Assembly: GCA_963700755.1 (NCBI GenBank)
Contig: CAVOYW010000008.1
Span: 141,318 to 205,317 of the forward strand
Origin: an uncultured Acidimicrobiales bacterium
GTDB taxonomy: Bacteria; Actinomycetota; Acidimicrobiia; Acidimicrobiales; SZUA-35
Reading direction: 5' to 3'
DNA length: 64,000 nucleotides
The position numbers were made by a program, and so were the translations under genes. How positions within the stretch are numbered: position 1 is the first letter of the stretch; every line of letters starts with the position of its first letter. Under the pieces are notes generated by a model that saw only the letters and a list, made by a program, of their open reading frames with translations, did no database searches and was not told the DNA's origin. Positions 18,896 through 49,525 of the stretch are shown piece after piece.

Positions 18896-19369
18896 TCAGC
18901 TCGTCGGGCCGACCTGCGCGGCGTCCCGCTTGATCAGTGTCATTTCGCGTTCGAAGTCGTCGACATCGGTGAAGCCCTTGTAGACGCTCGCAAAACGCAG
19001 GGCGGCAACCAGATCGAGGGCTCGAAGGAGCTCGAGAGCGGCAAGTCCGACCCACTCCGACGTGACCTCGGCACCGGCGACCCGGGCCGCATCCTCGATG
19101 TCTCCGGCCACCTTGACCAGCAATGACGAGTCGATCGGGCGGCCCTTGCAGGCCGACTCGAGGCCGTTGATGATCTTGTCTCGGCAGAATGGCTGGCGTT
19201 CACCCGACCGTTTCGTGACCACGATGGGCTGCTCTTCGATGCGTTCGAAGGTGGTGAACCGGCGATCGCACTGGTTGCAGTAGCGGCGACGACGGATGGC
19301 CGTTCCGTCGTCGGCACCGCGCGAATCGACGACGCGGGTGTCGTCGGCATGGCACACGGGGCACATCAT
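18896..19369 (-). CDS. nrdR: transcriptional repressor NrdR
   Basis: The zinc ribbon MMCPVCH...CNQC is followed by an ATP-cone. The product is 157 aa. Confidence 0.93.
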   Translation of the reverse strand: MMCPVCHADDTRVVDSRGADDGTAIRRRRYCNQCDRRFTTFERIEEQPIVVTKRSGERQPFCRDKIINGLESACKGRPIDSSLLVKVAGDIEDAARVAGAEVTSEWVGLAALELLRALDLVAALRFASVYKGFTDVDDFEREMTLIKRDAAQVGPTS

Positions 19370-19478
19370 GTGGTCCAACGTACCCCGCGGCGTTCCCCTC
19401 ACCGCCGACCGTGCTCTCAAATCCGAAACGTCGTCGGGTGGCGGGACCCGATCCGGAATCCCGCCACCCACTCCTGCC

Positions 19479-20024
19479 CTATTCCGCACCGACGGTTTCG
19501 AGAATGGGCGACGGTTCGACCGCCGCCAGCGTGTCGGCCTCGAGGTTCGACGCCACGGCCCCGGGGGACAGGCCCGCCGGAACGACCATGACGTCGCCGA
19601 CGCGCAGGGCCGAGCCGCCGTTGCGATCGGCGAGGGCGTCGACGATCGGTCGGGGGTCTTGGCCCGGCGCGAGCGTTTCGGCGATCGCCCAGAGGGTGTC
19701 GCCCGCCTGAACGACTCGGGTGGTCTCGCCCAGCAGCGGCTCGGCCGGCGCCGCGGATGCGGCCGGTAACGGAACCGGCCCCTGGGGCGGGCTGCCCTGG
19801 GCCAGGCGCAGCCCGACCAGGGCCGCCAGCACGGCCACGACGGCCAGCCCGACGAGAAGACCGGACCGGTCGGCGGTCGGGGTGTCGAGGCCGCCACGCA
19901 GGAGTCGCAGGTCGGGACGGGACGGCAGCGTCGCCGACGCGGCTCCGGAATCGTGTGACCGACCCGAGTGGTCCCGCAATCGGGACCGGGTCGGAACCGG
20001 GGTTGGGTGAAGGAGTGCGACCAT
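19479..20024 (-). CDS. LysM domain-containing membrane protein (lexA-divergent, likely SOS-regulated)
   Basis: The protein has a TM segment LLVGLAVVAVLAALVGL and a LysM motif VVQAGDTLWAIAE. Its position between nrdR and lexA matches other Actinobacteria. Confidence 0.75.
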   Translation of the reverse strand: MVALLHPTPVPTRSRLRDHSGRSHDSGAASATLPSRPDLRLLRGGLDTPTADRSGLLVGLAVVAVLAALVGLRLAQGSPPQGPVPLPAASAAPAEPLLGETTRVVQAGDTLWAIAETLAPGQDPRPIVDALADRNGGSALRVGDVMVVPAGLSPGAVASNLEADTLAAVEPSPILETVGAE

Positions 20025-20052
20025 GGCGACAGTGTCCTCGTGGGGTGTGACA

Positions 20053-20066
20053 CGAACGGGTGTTCG
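20053..20066. promoter_or_regulatory. LexA (SOS) box CGAACGGGTGTTCG
   Basis: This is an actinobacterial Cheo-type GAAC-N4-GTTC palindrome, 29 nt upstream of the LysM gene start. Confidence 0.8.
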
Positions 20067-20079
20067 GCTCCACTCAATC

Positions 20080-20093
20080 CGAACGAACGTTCG
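20080..20093. promoter_or_regulatory. LexA (SOS) box CGAACGAACGTTCG
   Basis: This is a perfect GAAC-N4-GTTC palindrome in the lexA/LysM divergent intergenic region. Confidence 0.85.
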
Positions 20094-20109
20094 ATTGCAA
20101 CCCCGGTAT

Positions 20110-20123
20110 CGAACATTTGTACG
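20110..20123. promoter_or_regulatory. LexA (SOS) box with one mismatch, CGAACATTTGTACG
   Basis: The sequence is GAAC-N4-GTAC, 74 nt upstream of the lexA start. Confidence 0.6.
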
Positions 20124-20196
20124 TGCCGTCGTGGCATACTCTCCAAACACCCGTTCGACCGTCGTGGACCGGCCACGACCCAACCAAAGGGCACCC

Positions 20197-20838
20197 ATGG
20201 CCAAGCATCGCCTCACCGATCGCCAGCGAGCGATCCTGGAATTCATCAGCGACCAAATGCGAGACCGCGGCTATCCCCCCTCGGTCCGAGAGATCGGTGC
20301 CCATGTCGGACTGACCTCACCCTCCACCGTCCACTCCCACCTGGCCACGCTGCAGCGCGAGGGATACCTCCGCCGCGACCCGACCAAACCCCGGGCCATC
20401 GAGGTGCGGTGGGACGCCATGTCCGGAGCGAGTGACGTCGAGCGGCGACCGGTGCGCCACGTTCCGCTCGTGGGGTCGGTGGCCGCCGGAACCGACGTGC
20501 TGGCCCAGGAGCACATCGAAGAGACCCTGCCGGTACCGGCGGACTTCACCGGCGACGGTGACCTGTTCATGCTCACGGTGCGCGGCGAGTCGATGATCGG
20601 CGCCGGAATCCTCGATGGCGACTTCGTGGTCGCACGGGTGCAGTCCGAGGCCCGAACCGGCGACATCGTGGTCGCCGGCATCCCGGGTGAGGAGGCCACG
20701 GTCAAGAGCTACTACTACGACCCGAAGGCCAAACAGGTCGTCCTGATCCCCCACAACCCGGCCCTGACCGAGATGCGCTTCTCACCCGACGAGGTCACGA
20801 TCTTCGGCAAGGTCGTGACCGTGATGCGACGCCTCTAG
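20197..20838 (+). CDS. lexA: LexA repressor
   Basis: The winged-HTH region is RQRAILEFI...GYPPSVREIG. The cleavage region is VAAG, and the S24 peptidase motif is RGESMIGAGILDGD. Confidence 0.95.
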   Translation: MAKHRLTDRQRAILEFISDQMRDRGYPPSVREIGAHVGLTSPSTVHSHLATLQREGYLRRDPTKPRAIEVRWDAMSGASDVERRPVRHVPLVGSVAAGTDVLAQEHIEETLPVPADFTGDGDLFMLTVRGESMIGAGILDGDFVVARVQSEARTGDIVVAGIPGEEATVKSYYYDPKAKQVVLIPHNPALTEMRFSPDEVTIFGKVVTVMRRL

Positions 20839-26663: not shown

Positions 26664-28497
26664 ATGCGTTCACGCAGCCGATGGCGCCGTCTTCGCTCTC
26701 GCGGGCTCGCACCGCTGTTCGCGACGCTCGTGACCGCGGCGCTGTTCCTCCCATCGCCCGAACCGGCCGAGGCATCGGACCTCTTCGGCACCCGATTCCC
26801 CACCGAGGAGGCGTTCGTCGACCAGGCCTACCGAGACGTGCTGTCCCGCGGACCGGATCAGGCCGGCCTCACCTACTGGTCCGACCGGATCCACGCCGGC
26901 ACCACCCCCGACGAGCTCGTCGAGTTCCTGATCACCTCACCGGAGTTCGAGGCCACCACCGCGCCGATCATTCGCCTGTATCACGCCATCTTCGATCGCG
27001 TTCCCGATCTCGACGGGCTCCGGTTCTGGGTGGCCCAGACCGCCGCAGGAAGCCCACTGGCCAACACGGCGGCGGCCATGCTCGAGAGCGCCGAATTCGA
27101 AGCGCTCGCCAACGCCGAGGACACCGACGAGATCGTGGCCGCGGTCTATGGTCGATCGCTCGGGCGAACACCCGACCAGGGCGGGCTCGCCTTCTGGCGG
27201 GGTGAGATCGACCAGGGTCGCCTGACCGTGGCCCAGTTCGTCGCGCTCGATCTCGGAGTCGCCCGAACACCAAGACCTGCTCCGGGGCGAGGTCTCGACA
27301 ACGCTGATCTACCTCGCCATGCTCCAGCGAGTCCCCGAACCCGAGGGCCTCGGCTATTGGTCCGACCTGTTCGATTCCGGTACCCGGTTGCGGACCCTGG
27401 TCGGCGTGTTCTTCGACCAGCCCGAATGGAAGAACCGATTTGCGGTCCGCCCCGAACTCGATGCGGTGTCCATTCCCGGTTTCGATCATCCGTGGGACGT
27501 CGACTCGCTCCCCGATGGCACCGTGCTGGTCACCGAGCGGGCCGGTCGCCTGGTCGCCCTCGCACCCGGCACCCGCCGGACCCGAACGATCGCGGCCGAC
27601 TTCGGTGACCTCTACGCCGGCGGCGAGACCGGCCTGATGGGTCTCGCCGTCGATCCCGACCACGCCACCAACGGTCGGATCTACACCTGCCAGGGCCACC
27701 GTGATCCAGCCGACGCGTCGCGGCGGGACATCCGCGTCGTGGCGTGGGCACTCGACGCCGGGGCGACCAGGGCCACGAAGCTCGGACCGGTCGTCACCGG
27801 GATGCCATTGGCGTCGGGTCGACACGGTGGATGTCAGCTCGAGTTCGCCGAGGACGGCTCCCTCTTCATCGGAACCGGCGACGGGGCGATCGGCACCACG
27901 CCGCAGGATCTCGGATCGCTGGGGGGCAAGGTCCTGCGGGTCGACCCGACGACCGGCGCAGGGGCGCCCGGCAACCCATTCGCCGATTCGGCCAATCCCG
28001 ACACCCGACGGGTCTTCACCTACGGTCATCGGAACGTCCAAGGCCTGAGCCAGAGACCCGGTACGTCCGAGATGTGGTCGATCGAGCACGGCCCCGATCG
28101 CGACGACGAGATCAACCGGCTGCGTCCCGGGGGCAACGGCGGATGGAACCCCGTGCCGGGCTACAACGAGCGGGTGCCGATGACGAATCCGTCACTGGCC
28201 GGGATCATGCCCGCGGCCTGGTCGACCGGCTCACCGACGCTGGCACTGTCGGGCGGCGAATGGCTCGACGATCCCACGTGGGGATCACTCGACGGCGGTC
28301 TGGCCGTGACGGCCCTGAAGGGCCGGGCGCTGTGGGTGCATCGGTTCAATGCCGAGGGGCTGTCGCTCGGTCGGACCTCGGCGCTCCTCGGCGGTGACCG
28401 GCTCCGTGGTGTGCACCAGGCGACGGACGGATCGCTCTGGGTCACCTCCGACAACGGCGGCGGCCGTGACACCGTCACCGTCCTCATCCCTCGTTGA
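26664..28497 (+). pseudogene. secreted DUF4214 (x3)-PQQ-dependent sugar dehydrogenase (GSDH beta-propeller) fusion, with one frameshift as sequenced
   Basis: The signal peptide and DUF4214 repeats (QAYRDVLSRGPDQAGLTYW; AVYGRSLGRTPDQGGLAFW) lie in the frame of ORF 25584-27608. The third DUF4214 repeat (YLAMLQRVPEPEGLGYW) and the propeller (GHRNVQGL, EHGPDRDDEIN) lie in the frame of ORF 27319-28497, which is open from 27226. The frames switch near 27249. Confidence 0.7.
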
Positions 28498-43604: not shown

Positions 43605-44606
43605 ATGACCGACCCGTTGACCCCCGCCAAGGACGCCCGGCCACTCGGCGCTCGCTGGGGGCTGGCCGGCGGTGTGGCCCTGTCGTCGATCGATGCGGTT
43701 CGCGAGACGGCGAGGTTTGCCGAATCGGCCGGGTTCGATGGGCTGTGGATCTCCCAGTCGAACGCAGTCGACCCGCTCGTCGCACTGGCGGCCGTCGGCG
43801 GCGACGTTCCCACGCTGGCCGAGGTCGGCACCTCGGTCGTGCCGCTCTACGGGCGTCATCCGGTCGGGTTGGCCCAGGAGGCGATGACCGCCCAGTCGGC
43901 GCTCGGCGGTCGGCTGACGCTCGGAATCGGCCCGTCGCACCGACGATCGGTCGAGGGTTCGATGGGCCTGTCGTGGGATCGACCATTCGGCTACACCTGC
44001 GACTTCCTCGACGGGCTGCAACCGCTGCTGGCCGGCGACCCGGCCGATGTCGAGGGAACCGATCTCACCACCCGCGCCCACCTGGCCATCGATGCCCCCG
44101 ACACACCGATCCTCCTCGCTGCGCTGGGCCCACGGATGCTCGAACTGGCCGGATCACGAACGGCAGGGACGACCGTCGGCCAGTGCGGACCGAAGACGAT
44201 CGCCGGCCACATCGCCCCACGTGTCATCGAGGCGGCCGAACGGGCCGGGCGGCACCGTCCTCGCATCATGGCGCTGGTGAGGATCTGTGTGACCGACGAT
44301 CGAGCGGCGGCCTACGCCCAGGCCCGTCAGGTCGGGGCCGCCTACCGAGACCTGCCCTCCTACGCTGCCGTGCTGGCCCGGGAAGGGCTGACCGAGCCGG
44401 CCGATCTCCACCTCATCGGGTCGTGGGAACAGGTGCTCGACGGGCTTGGCACCTACACCGACGCCGGCGTCACCGACCTCCGGATCGAGGTGGTGGCCCC
44501 GACCCCTGCCGACACCGAGCGCACACGCGACGCACTGGCCGGCCACCTGTCGAACCGAGGCGATCAGGCCGACGCCGCAAACGCCTCGGCCAGTTCGAAC
44601 ACCTGA
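43605..44606 (+). CDS. luciferase-like monooxygenase (LLM) family, probably an F420-dependent oxidoreductase
   Basis: The protein has a TIM-barrel LLM pattern (FDGLWISQ...LGIGPSH...). The ATG is at 43605. Confidence 0.75.
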   Translation: MTDPLTPAKDARPLGARWGLAGGVALSSIDAVRETARFAESAGFDGLWISQSNAVDPLVALAAVGGDVPTLAEVGTSVVPLYGRHPVGLAQEAMTAQSALGGRLTLGIGPSHRRSVEGSMGLSWDRPFGYTCDFLDGLQPLLAGDPADVEGTDLTTRAHLAIDAPDTPILLAALGPRMLELAGSRTAGTTVGQCGPKTIAGHIAPRVIEAAERAGRHRPRIMALVRICVTDDRAAAYAQARQVGAAYRDLPSYAAVLAREGLTEPADLHLIGSWEQVLDGLGTYTDAGVTDLRIEVVAPTPADTERTRDALAGHLSNRGDQADAANASASSNT

Positions 44607-45773
44607 CGCTGGGCATGGCTCCCGCCGAGCTTCCAGCGCCGGTCGCGGGTGCGGGCGAGCAGAACCGCGCCCTCCCGGGTCCGGCCCTGGGCGATGGCGA
44701 GCATCGCCCGGGCGGTATCGAGGCCGACCTCGTCGATCACGCGCCCGGCATTCGTCGCGGGACCGCTCCAGGCGGCCATGCCCTCGATCAGACGGGCGGC
44801 GTCGGCGTCGGCGCCGGCCCGGCCGAGCGCGTAGGCGATGTGGGCATCGGCGAACGGATGCGAATGATGACCGAGACGAAGCGTCGAGGGTTCGACCAGC
44901 GCAGTCCATCGGTCGCCGACATCGACCCCGGAGAACTCGAGGCGGGCGAGCCCGTCGATGGCGTTGGTCAGCGACAGCGAGTCGGTGGCGTCTCCCGGCT
45001 GGACCTCGCGGTCGTACAGCTCCAGGAGCCGGTCGTGATCACCGGTCCGGAGGTGGATGATGGCGTGGTGCCACCAGAGGTGGCGGGCAAAGGAGCCGTG
45101 TGCGTGGAGCACGCCGTCGCGTCCTTCGAACCAGGCCAGCCCGTCATCGGTCCGGGCCTGCATTTCGAGGACGTGCGCCACCGCGTGGATCGACCAGAGA
45201 TCATGCTCGTCGGTGTCGACCGCCGACCGCCCATGGCGCTCGGCATCGGCGTACTCGCCCAGTTCCTCGAGGGCGAAGGCCACCATGCCGTCGAGGTGGC
45301 TACGCCTCGGCCGATCGTCCCATCGATCGATGGCCCGACGACTCGAGACCAGCATGTCGGCACATCGCCCCTGTGAGAACAGCGCGAAGTAGCGCAATCG
45401 CAAGGCCAGGATGTCGGTCGGCCAGCGGGTCAACAAGCGGTCCCACGTTTCGAGCGTGGCATCGAGGTCGCCGTCGAGCCAGGTCTCGAGGGCCTCGAGA
45501 TGCAGGCGTTCCCGGGCATTCAGGTCGAGATACCGACCCCGCGCGGGCGGCCTCTGCGGCCCGCTGATGATCGGCCGCCGTATTGGCCTGGACCAGCAGC
45601 AGGCCCAAGGCCAATGTCGACATCGGCGCCGCCGGCTCCGCCACCGCACGGGCGAGACGCTGCGGAAGGTCCTTGGCGAACGTGACGAATCCGTCGACCA
45701 GCGAAACGTACCGGGCCAGCGCGTCCGGGTCGGGTGCGCTGGTGTCGAGTCCCCACGGGTCGATCTGCTCCAT
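44564..45773 (-). pseudogene. TTC38-like tetratricopeptide repeat protein, with one frameshift as sequenced
   Basis: The N-terminal 80 aa lie in the frame of ORF 45300-45809 (MEQIDPWGLDTS…HQRAAEAARAG). The rest lies in the frame of ORF 44564-45649 (RYLDLNARERLHLEALETW…). The switch is at a C/G run near 45530-45545. Confidence 0.6.
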
Positions 45774-45866
45774 GGCCCCGAACCTACGGCTGCGGTCCGG
45801 ATGCTTCAAGTGCGGTCCGGCAGGAGGGGGAACGCCGCTCCCGCGGAGACGACGGTCGAGGCGCGG

Positions 45867-46970
45867 TCAGCGAGCGAAGGTGCTGCGGTCGTCGGCGAAC
45901 GACTTGAACTCGAGGGCATTCCCGGCCGGGTCGAGCACGAACGCCGTGTGTTGCTCACCCGGTTCCCCCGCGAAGCGGGCGTAGGGCTCGATCACGAACC
46001 GGACGTCGGCCTCGCGCAGTCGGGTGATCAGGTCACGCCAGGCGTGCACCGGCACGAGCAACCCGAAATGGCGGATCGGAACGTCTCGACCGTCGACGAG
46101 GTTGGCCGAGATGGTGGCGTCGTGGTGTTCGTCGAGGTGGGCGACGATCTGGTGCCCCCAGAGGTCGAAATCGACCCAGTCGGGTGCCGACCGACCCTCA
46201 CGACACCCGAGGACCGTTCCATAGAACCAACGCGCCCGATCGAGGTCGTCGACCGGGAACGCCAGGTGGAAACGAGGGCGGGCGAGGGTCGGCACCAACC
46301 GACCCGTCTCGATGGTGTCGACGTCGGCTCTCGTGAACTGGGTCAACGACTCGAGCACGAGATCGGCGAATCCGAACTGCGCCGTGCCCCGGGACTCGAG
46401 GTCGGGAACGGCGACCACCGCCATCCCGGCCCCCTTCGCCGAGATACACCCGCTCACGGCGTCTTCGAACACGACACATCCCGCCGGGTCGACGCCGAGC
46501 TCGGCTGCGGTCGCCAGGTAGGGCTCGGGGTGCGGCTTGCCGTGGGAGTCGTGCTCGGCGGAGTGCACGACCTCGAAGCGATCGGTGAGATCGAGGGCGA
46601 TCAGGGTCGCGTCGATCAGGCGCTGATCCGACGAACTGCAGAGGGCGAGTCGCAGCCCGCGGTCGGCACAGAGACCGAGTGCCTCGTCGACCCCGGCCAG
46701 AGCGACGGCTCCTGCGGTGAGTTCGACCACCCGATCGACGACACTCGAGGCCACTTCATCGGGGGTTGGACCGCTCCACGGATGCCACCGGTACCAAAGT
46801 CGAGCGACGTCGCCCATGCGGACGCCCATGGTCAGATCGAAGTCGTGTTCGGTGAACGGCAGTCCGAGCGCCGCCGCCGCCTCCCGCTCGGCGATCCGCC
46901 AGCGTTGCTCCGATGCCGTGAGCAGGCCATCCATGTCGAAGATGGCGGCAGTGAGCGAACGGGAGGCCAT
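45867..46970 (-). CDS. fusion of a HAD-IA phosphatase/phosphomutase domain and a VOC (glyoxalase/dioxygenase) domain
   Basis: The N-terminal part has the FDMDGLL (DxDxT-type) motif and the GKPHPEPY motif. The C-terminal part contains FHLAFPVDDLDRARWFY...ALEFKSF. Confidence 0.7.
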   Translation of the reverse strand: MASRSLTAAIFDMDGLLTASEQRWRIAEREAAAALGLPFTEHDFDLTMGVRMGDVARLWYRWHPWSGPTPDEVASSVVDRVVELTAGAVALAGVDEALGLCADRGLRLALCSSSDQRLIDATLIALDLTDRFEVVHSAEHDSHGKPHPEPYLATAAELGVDPAGCVVFEDAVSGCISAKGAGMAVVAVPDLESRGTAQFGFADLVLESLTQFTRADVDTIETGRLVPTLARPRFHLAFPVDDLDRARWFYGTVLGCREGRSAPDWVDFDLWGHQIVAHLDEHHDATISANLVDGRDVPIRHFGLLVPVHAWRDLITRLREADVRFVIEPYARFAGEPGEQHTAFVLDPAGNALEFKSFADDRSTFAR

Positions 46971-47093
46971 GGCTCGAAAGGTTACGGGCCGCTGGCTCGC
47001 ATCCTTCTGCCCGGGCCTCGGAAAACCGGCCGCCAGCCAGAGCCGCCCACCGGCCGGCAGGGTTTGCCTGCATCGCTCGGGTCGATCGGGGGT

Positions 47094-48215
47094 TCAGTGT
47101 GTGGCGTGGGGCCGGTTCATCCCGAAGGCGTTGGGAGTGACGCGGATGAATTCGGCCTTCACCCAGAACTCCTCGATGGTCCGGGCATCGCAGTAGCTCA
47201 TCCCCGAGCGCAAACCGGCCATGAGCGAACCGAGGAGCTTGCCCACCTCACCGCGATAGGGCACCGTGCCTTCGACCCCTTCGGGCGCGCGCTGTTCGAA
47301 GTACTCGGCGTCGATCTCCTCGCCTTCGCGGGCGGCCCGGGCCTCGAGCGCCTCGAACGAGGCCATGCCCCGGACCCGCTTGACCAGCCCTCGGTCGGAC
47401 TGCTCGACTTCGCCCGGGCTCTCCTTGGTGCCTGCGAGCATCGATCCGATCATGACCGTCGAGGCTCCGGCCGCCAGCGCCTTGGCGATGTCGCCCGAGG
47501 TCCGGATGCCGCCGTCGGCGATCACCGGGATCGGTTCCCCGGCGACATCGGCGAATCCGGCACAGTCGCTGATGGCGGTGAGCTGCGGGACGCCAACGCC
47601 GGCAACCAGCCGCGTGGTGCACACCCCACCCGGGCCGACACCGACCTTGACCGCGTCGGCGCCTGCGGCGACCAGGTCGTCGGCTCCGACTCTCGTGGCC
47701 ACGTTGCCGGCGATGACGTCGATCTCGGGCAGCGCCGCCTTGATCTGGCCCAGCACCTCGATGGCATGGTCGGCGTGCCCGTGGGCGATGTCGAGCACCA
47801 GGACGTCGGCGCCGGCGTCGACCAGCGCCCGCGAACGATCGAGCGCGTCGCGATCGGTGCCGACCGCTGCACCCACCAGGAGCGACCCCCGGTTGGTCAC
47901 CGGCCCCGCCCCGGCCAAGGACTCCGGCGCCGGCGCCGCCGTCTTCACCGCTTCCACCATCGCCGCCTGTGCGTCGATGGTGAGGAACCGATGGATGATG
48001 CCCATGCCGCCCAGCCGGGCCATGGCGATCGCCATCGTCCGTTTCGCAGACGGTGTCCATGTTGGCAGCGATGACCGGAAGATCCGAGATCGACGTTGCG
48101 GGTACAGTGCCGTCTGCAGCGACACGTCGATGCGGGATCGGATACCGGATCGCCGGGGGACGAGCAGGACGTCGTCGAAGGTCAGGCCGGTTCGGAGTCG
48201 CAGTCGAGGCTTCAC
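47094..48215 (-). CDS. IMP dehydrogenase/GMP reductase family protein (no CBS insert); the ORF is intact, but a conserved motif sits in another frame (compensated frameshift pair)
   Basis: The sequence contains [45 protein letters not shown] and VIADGGIR. The expected [14 protein letters not shown] motif is readable only in the -1 frame between about 48100 and 48040. Confidence 0.8.
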
Positions 48216-48217
48216 CG

Positions 48218-49287
48218 TCAGTCGAGGCTAATGGGCTCGTCGAGGGACCGCTCGTCGAGGTCGACGAGGTCGGGAGCGAGACTCGTCGGCTCGGAGCATC
48301 GAGCGCCCACGGCCTATGAGCGACTCGATCCTGCATCTCCATCATGAGGTCGGGGTTCTCGGCCAGGAACCGTCTTGACGGCTTCGCGACCCTGGCCGAT
48401 CTGTTCGCCGTCGTAGCTGTACCAGGCCCCGGACTTCTTGACGATGTCCTGATCGACGGCGATGTCGAGCAGCGAACCCTCGCGGCTGATGCCATGGCCG
48501 TACATGATGTCGAACTCGGCCTGACGGAACGGCGGCGCGACCTTGTTCTTGACGACCTTGACACGGGTGCGGTTGCCGACCACCTCGGCGCCGTCCTTCA
48601 GGGACTCGATCCGGCGGATGTCGAGGCGGACCGAACTGTAGAACTTGAGCGCCCGACCACCGGGGGTGGTCTCGGGCGAGCCGAACATCACCCCGATCTT
48701 CTCTCGCAGCTGATTGATGAAGATGCAGATGGTGTCGGTCTTGTTGAGGTTGCCGGTGATCTTGCGCAGCGCCTGTGACATGAGCCGGGCCTGGAGCCCG
48801 ACGTGGGTGTCGCCCATGTCGCCTTCGATCTCGGCCCGAGGGGTGAGGGCGGCGACCGAGTCGATGACGATGACGTCGATCGAACCCGACCGGACCAGGA
48901 TGTCGGCGATCTCGAGCGCCTGTTCACCGGTGTCGGGCTGCGAGATCAGCAGCTCGTCGACGTCGACGCCGATGGCTCGGGCGTAGATCGGGTCCATGGC
49001 GTGCTCGGCGTCGATGTAGGCGCACTTGCCACCGTTGCGCTGGGCCTCGGCCACCACGTGCATGGCCAGGGTCGACTTGCCGGAGGACTCCGGACCGAAG
49101 ATCTCGACCACACGACCACGAGGAAGGCCGCCGACACCGAGGGCGATGTCGAGGGCCAGGGCACCCGTGGGGATCGACGCCGATGGAGCGGCTGCCCTTC
49201 TCGCCCATCTTCATGACCGGCACCCTTGCCGAACTGCTTTTCGATCTGGCCCAGGGCCATGTCGAGGGCTTTGTCTTTGTCGACCAT
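48218..49287 (-). pseudogene. recA: recombinase RecA; the reading frame is broken by four single-nt indels as sequenced (most likely sequence error)
   Basis: MVDKDKALDMALGQIEKQFGKGA reads in frame [13 protein letters not shown] reads in frame [42 protein letters not shown] through GQGREAVKT reads in frame [19 protein letters not shown] reads in frame D. The acidic tail [24 protein letters not shown] is back in frame C. AAGGAG lies 9 nt before the ATG at 49287. Confidence 0.93.
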
Positions 49288-49421
49288 GTTGCGTGTCTCC
49301 TTGTGCGGCGGTCCGTGGGTTGGAGGCCTGGGTTGGTGCCGCCGGTTGGTTGCGGCGGGTACTCGACGGGGAAAGAGCTGGCGGTCGGACCTTCCGAGCG
49401 GACCCGAGAGGAACGATGATG

Positions 49422-49511: not shown

Positions 49512-49525
49512 CGAACACTTGTTCG
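49512..49525. promoter_or_regulatory. LexA (SOS) box CGAACACTTGTTCG
   Basis: This is a perfect GAAC-N4-GTTC palindrome in the recA/lipoprotein divergent region. It overlaps the -35 position of the plus-strand promoter. Confidence 0.8.

Follow-up and report, generated by a model that had tools for sequence, protein, structure and literature searches.

Frame breaks in the recA gene of an uncultured Acidimicrobiales bacterium very probably stem from insertion errors of the assembly

Introduction

When the recA gene of a bacterium cannot be read in a single frame, has the organism lost RecA, or is the gene broken only in the deposited sequence? This question is raised by a 64,000-nt stretch of DNA (hereafter the window) from the metagenome assembly of an uncultured Acidimicrobiales bacterium, G000 (5.4 Mb in 11 contigs). 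On the minus strand of the window, between 48218 and 49287, a complete RecA is obtained only by way of four frame changes, as read from the sequence and from its list of ORFs. An earlier note on this DNA had described the RecA segments as scattered over shifted frames and had favored sequence errors over a pseudogene. Here, we examined the locus against intact recA genes of the same genus, and asked how far the same kind of break extends through the genome.

Results

As deposited, recA (48218..49287, minus strand) is 1070 nt long, which is not a multiple of three. A Pfam search with PF00154 identified this as the sole recA locus of G000, scoring 431.7 bits, above the curated cut-off, with profile positions 31-262 covered in one frame; frameshift-aware alignment showed that positions 1-30 fall in the shifted N-terminal pieces. 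The N-terminus, MVDKDKALDMALGQIEKQFGKGA, begins at the ATG at 49287, and the C-terminus ends in ...LDEPISLD with the stop codon at 48220-48218, 2 nt before the GTG of the downstream gene at 48215. The longest unbroken RecA ORF, 48314..49111 on the minus strand, encodes 265 aa and matches RecA positions 54-262 with 388 bits, together with the start of RecA_C (PF21096; 62.9 bits), as determined from the ORF list and Pfam. It contains the Walker A P-loop as GPESSGKST, in agreement with the pattern GPESSGK(S/T), and the VM-12aa-IPTG spacing of the window RecA is that of the congener RecAs. The scattered segments, the extent of the longest ORF and the position of the stop codon relative to the next GTG were thus found as the earlier note had given them. 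What the deposited gene lacks is a single uninterrupted frame of about 350 codons, since four breaks interrupt it, and we judged this to be a fault of the assembly rather than of the gene.

The nature of the breaks was determined using the intact recA genes of three congeners, G002, G003 and G004 (354, 356 and 354 aa), as references, both in a DNA alignment and in a frameshift-aware protein-to-DNA alignment with each congener RecA. The latter, which had been proposed as a check in the earlier note, returned the identical four events with every one of the three: +1, +1, +1 and +2. The first is one extra G on the minus strand at 49217..49218 (GCC[G]GTC, after codon 23), the second one extra G at 49178 (GGC[G]TCG, minus strand, after codon 36), and the third one extra A at 48373 (AAG[A]CGG, minus strand, after codon 304); all three bases are absent from G002, G003 and G004. 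The fourth event scored best as two extra bases (AG) at 48314-48315, which is the best single explanation of a garbled start of the C-terminal tail at 48300..48345 on the minus strand. In that segment, the DNA alignment suggested several small indels whose exact resolution is impossible; the acidic tail aligns poorly over roughly its first 15 codons, and further compensating indels may hide there. None of the recA insertions lies inside a homopolymer run, and none of the events is a clear deletion.

Breaks had been expected near 49218, 49181, 48370 and 48313-48318, and the aligned sites (49218, 49178, 48373 and 48314-48315) lie 0-3 nt from these. The fourth break itself was therefore placed correctly, but its reading as a missing base is the less likely one, given that it scores best as +2. 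With five extra bases removed, 1065 nt remain, corresponding to 354 codons plus a stop, and 354 aa is the RecA length of G002 and G004; this length is preferred to the 1068 nt and 356 codons proposed earlier. A -1 event at the fourth site, leaving 1068 nt, also restores the frame. However, it is less parsimonious, because it would add one residue to the protein relative to G002 and G004 and would put a single deletion into a block made up otherwise of insertions. As judged from the alignments, the fourth event is thus more likely a +2 than a -1.

The gene directly downstream of recA belongs to the IMPDH/GMP-reductase family (47094..48215, minus strand; Pfam IMPDH/GMP reductase, 384 bits), and a gene of this family stands in the same place in G002, G003 and G004. 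In many Actinomycetota, the usual gene downstream of recA is recX. The IMPDH/GMP-reductase gene has about 6 extra bases within its initial 180 nt that are specific to the window, at 48212, at about 48201-48202, 2 nt within 48082-48104, and at 48036. They sum to multiples of three, so that the ORF stays open, while a conserved 13-residue motif is hidden in another frame and the N-terminal 60 codons are scrambled by the compensating insertions. The remainder of the gene, between 48036 and its stop at 47094, can be read without a change of frame. The error-dense block thus extends over 48036..49218, about 1.18 kb in which 11 or more nucleotides are inserted, all outside homopolymer runs, and no event is clearly a deletion, around a clean center at 48374-49177.

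A few other frames of the window deserve mention. An 887-aa open frame at 45411-48074 on the plus strand runs antisense to three real genes and is a typical high-GC shadow ORF, not a gene. An isolated frame break at about 45535-45564, in the gene at 44564-45773 (minus strand), was picked up by the homology chain and also by the reference-free detector described below. The homology chain gave further candidates near 27249 and 15735; one near 20175 is probably a false call arising from an N-terminal ORF extension of lexA.

We then compared the RecA obtained by reading through the breaks with that of G004. The two are identical at 332 of 354 residues (94% identity to the congeners), and at the DNA level the genes diverge by about 11%. 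Over the whole gene, 83 synonymous differences were counted, whereas the non-synonymous ones are confined to codons 12, 33, 38, 51 and 317 and to the tail; the substitutions L12, R33, V51 and M317 are peculiar to the G000 RecA. In the core of 265 codons (codons 52-316), there was no amino-acid difference at all (100% identity). Because this core has not changed despite 83 synonymous changes over the whole gene, selection must have acted throughout the divergence. Relaxed selection, the hallmark of a pseudogene, was not seen: the 265 core codons carry no non-synonymous change, and the frame events are insertions only. A gene left unselected long enough to gather at least five indels should show amino-acid changes, and the absence of any in the recA core argues against decay; still less does it fit a decay long enough for the more than 10 indels of the block.

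The regulatory surroundings of recA were also examined. A Shine-Dalgarno sequence, AAGGAG, can be read directly at 49297..49302 on the minus strand, 9 nt ahead of the recA start codon (ATG, 49287), and a perfect palindromic SOS (LexA) box, CGAACACTTGTTCG, lies at 49512..49525, about 225 nt upstream of recA. The lexA gene (20197..20838, plus strand; probable start MAKHRL) is intact, with both the LexA_DNA_bind and Peptidase_S24 domains. Upstream of it stand four SOS boxes at 20053..20157, of which two are perfect and the other two have one mismatch each. In the window as a whole, the SOS-box pattern (CGAAC-N4-GTTCG) has 18 matches, against 5.1 expected by chance. An intact lexA, four good boxes and a Shine-Dalgarno sequence ahead of the true ATG had all been reported in the earlier note, and each was recovered; judged by these features, the SOS system is otherwise intact. 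The four boxes are spaced about 30 nt apart, an unusually dense autoregulatory operator, and the divergent gene upstream of lexA (18896-20194, minus strand) looks like nrdR.

Breaks of the same kind were found in other genes of G000. One copy of clpP (C5:781714-782242) is broken into three or more pieces that are out of frame with each other, and a second clpP (C6:9837-10376) is intact. In prfB, which encodes RF2 (C5:742003-742330), the PCRF domain is split at position 149 and positions 1-80 were not detected; prfA (C8:581526-582458) is intact and the SecA_DEAD domain is unbroken. The prfB gene is essential and single-copy. A viable cell cannot lose RF2 by frameshift, and loss of ClpP and RecA besides is not credible, which argues that the breaks are artefacts.

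The extent of such breaks in the genome was measured by comparison with congeners. G000 has a marker completeness of 79.7%, whereas congeners of the same size are 90-96% complete, three of them 94-96%. The reference sample comprised 760 kb of G004 and 400 kb of G003. Its genes were called, and abutting frame changes were sought by linking tblastn HSPs into chains. A first, looser version of this detector over-called and was rejected, since a reverse control flagged equally many breaks in G004; the false calls arose in part from out-of-frame ORF extensions of similar DNA that match each other. The first gene caller had been misled by antisense ORFs whose third codon position coincides with that of the gene. 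A count of indels by blastn against the syntenic region of G004 was also dropped because it was too noisy at 70-80% identity. The strict filter required abutting junctions and a coding signature (GC3 of at least 0.80 and GC1>GC2) on both sides of the query ORF.

With this filter, 15 breaks were found in 302 kb of G000 compared with G004 proteins and 2 in 50 kb compared with G003 proteins, that is, 17 breaks in 352 kb. All filtered counts are lower bounds from the 1.1-Mb reference sample. The direction of the G000 breaks was net +1 in a ratio of 15:2 (p=0.002 for an insertion bias), where a net +1 is indistinguishable from a net -2. G004 itself (8 contigs, 94% complete) had 20 breaks in 353 kb, 19:1 in favor of net +1 (p=4e-5), and should not be taken as an error-free reference. 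Some of the G004 breaks are clustered three to a gene, for example at about 1656-2428 and 9142-9400 of L024 and about 669-1292 of L033. In G003, a short-read assembly in 530 contigs that served to validate the strict filter, the same detector found no filtered break in 229 kb, and the difference in rate between G000 and G003 is significant (p=2e-4). When the looser detector was used, breaks were not enriched in highly conserved genes, with a median identity of 81% for broken and 80% for unbroken genes (p=0.73).

We also used a reference-free detector, which looks for changes of codon phase on one strand without a stop at the junction. Per 100 kb, it gave 2.75 candidates in G003, 5.9 in G004 and 9.6 in G000 (p=3.5e-7 for G000 against G003); because its segments are too short for the recA block, to which it is blind, these numbers serve as genome-wide rates only and are lower bounds. 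The 522 candidates in G000 were spread over all contigs, and their distribution was patchy, with an index of dispersion of 1.95 and 31 ten-kb bins holding at least four candidates against 9 expected. In another congener, G001 (20 contigs, 90% complete), recA is also split in two frames (C9:180676-181462), near profile position 145-147. These data, from three to four genomes, suggest that the breaks go with assemblies in few contigs. The signs expected of an artefact were found together: the breaks are absent from orthologues with the sequence conserved, they occur genome-wide and include indispensable genes, and they are absent in the short-read relative.

Finally, independent sequence of the same locus was sought. 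Two exact-pattern DNA scans of metagenome contigs in which the indel sites were optional, one for the N-terminal sites and one for the clean core at the third site, gave no match. An exact look-up of the proteins of the window led to a single contig, that of the G000 assembly itself, and a homologue search found no RecA of the same species. The top homologue, P0001, from an ENA contig of 2155 bp, was rejected as an unrelated chimeric RecA. This 449-aa 'RecA' has an internal duplication of about 95 residues, so that the segment ALALDLALGIGGLPRGR...LIRSGAL is present twice, and it probably arose when two strains were joined in a metagenome misassembly.

Discussion

Our results suggest, with high confidence, that the four breaks in recA are uncorrected insertion errors of sequencing or assembly and that the gene would be intact and functional in the organism. 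The preference of the earlier note for sequence errors over a pseudogene is strengthened by the conserved core, the restriction to insertions, the damage to the neighboring gene, the genome-wide breaks, including those in prfB and clpP, the clean short-read congener and the low completeness.

The main alternative in biological terms is a real and very recent pseudogenization, in which RecA was lost by several frameshifts while LexA and the SOS boxes were kept. In its favor, the breaks do stand in the deposited sequence, there is no second recA in G000, and no independent assembly contradicts them. The unchanged core beside 83 synonymous differences in the gene as a whole speaks against it, and so does the fact that all recA events are insertions, when gene decay in bacteria is reportedly biased toward deletions (according to Mira, Ochman and Moran, 2001). 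In addition, the neighboring gene is damaged by the same block, the short-read congener G003 is without breaks, and the same type of break occurs in the essential prfB, in a copy of clpP and at an estimated several hundred loci, a load that a viable free-living organism of 5.4 Mb could not sustain. We therefore consider pseudogenization very unlikely, and the particular form of it in which the insertions are real and the lineage is a very recent natural recA-null with intact LexA and SOS boxes slightly less likely still. If the latter were true, the LexA repressor could no longer be cleaved and the SOS regulon would be locked off. Genuine loss of recA, or recA pseudogenes, is found in reduced genomes such as those of some insect endosymbionts, where the genomes are small, the SOS regulon is lost and decay is general. 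G000 resembles these in its broken recA reading frame, but it differs in its 5.4-Mb size, in its intact lexA and boxes, and in a RecA without amino-acid decay.

The breaks could also be thought to be overcome by the cell, by frameshifting of the ribosome or slippage during transcription at each of the four sites, so that recA is still expressed. Beyond the shifts themselves, nothing points to such programmed recoding. It would take four shifts, one of them a +2, and none of the sites has a slippery heptamer or a homopolymer; further shifts occur in the neighboring gene and throughout the genome. Since three congeners with an intact recA (G002, G003 and G004) do without any shift, the comparison effectively refutes recoding, whose probability we regard as negligible. 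A different origin of the artefact deserves more weight, namely a minority variant or a mixed-strain consensus, in which the assembler built this stretch out of a few reads belonging to a co-occurring strain, or out of several strains collapsed into one. The patchiness of the breaks, the substitutions unique to G000 that the block carries (L12, R33, V51 and M317) and the metagenomic origin of the sequence are all in line with it. Mixing of strains, however, should give mainly substitutions and not pure insertions, and nothing in the data separates it from low coverage or failed polishing. We think this sub-type of artefact improbable, if clearly less so than pseudogenization or recoding.

If insertion errors are the cause, as we prefer to read the breaks, the consensus of the G000 metagenome assembly would have kept single-base insertions uncorrected, and these most plausibly go back to noisy long reads where coverage or polishing was poor in places. 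Such errors would come in patches. One patch of about 1.2 kb, 48036-49218, would take in the two ends of recA as well as the beginning of its downstream neighbor, and the 11 or more spurious bases in it would break the recA frame four times. Against a plain version of this model stands the local density, at least 11 nt in 1.2 kb, which is far above the genome average of about 0.05-0.1 per kb; a uniform error rate is thus insufficient, and a local cause must be assumed. Errors of nanopore reads are typically deletions in homopolymers, and the random insertions outside homopolymers seen here would seem a better match for older continuous long reads than for nanopore data.

False frameshifts induced by indels are well documented in long-read genome and metagenome assemblies, and they have been addressed by proovframe (10.1101/2021.08.23.457338), by Kastor (PMC12007338) and in the benchmarking of R10.4 (PMC9262707). 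The G000 breaks resemble these artefacts in that single-base indels split conserved genes, completeness is low despite high contiguity, a short-read relative is without breaks, and frame repair guided by reference proteins can correct them. They depart from typical nanopore artefacts in being nearly all insertions outside homopolymers and strongly patchy, in blocks of 1-5 kb. Once read through, the protein itself resembles a canonical RecA (PF00154 and PF21096) of the SOS-regulated kind in Actinomycetota, with 354 aa, the Walker A motif, the acidic ...LDEPISLD end, a LexA box and a Shine-Dalgarno sequence; it departs from the canon in the four interruptions of the deposited frame and in the IMPDH/GMP-reductase family gene directly downstream.

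For users of this genome the consequences are practical. False calls of truncated or split genes are likely for about 5-13% of the G000 genes, where the strict detector gave 5% and the looser one, whose calls include false positives, gave 13%. The breaks depress the completeness estimate and, in comparisons, would yield false pseudogenes, false gene losses (recA, prfB, clpP) and short ORFs that look novel. Odd frames in G000, G001 and G004 should therefore be read first as assembly errors. For the biology of the organism the finding has little consequence, as the RecA/LexA SOS system of the bacterium is almost certainly normal.
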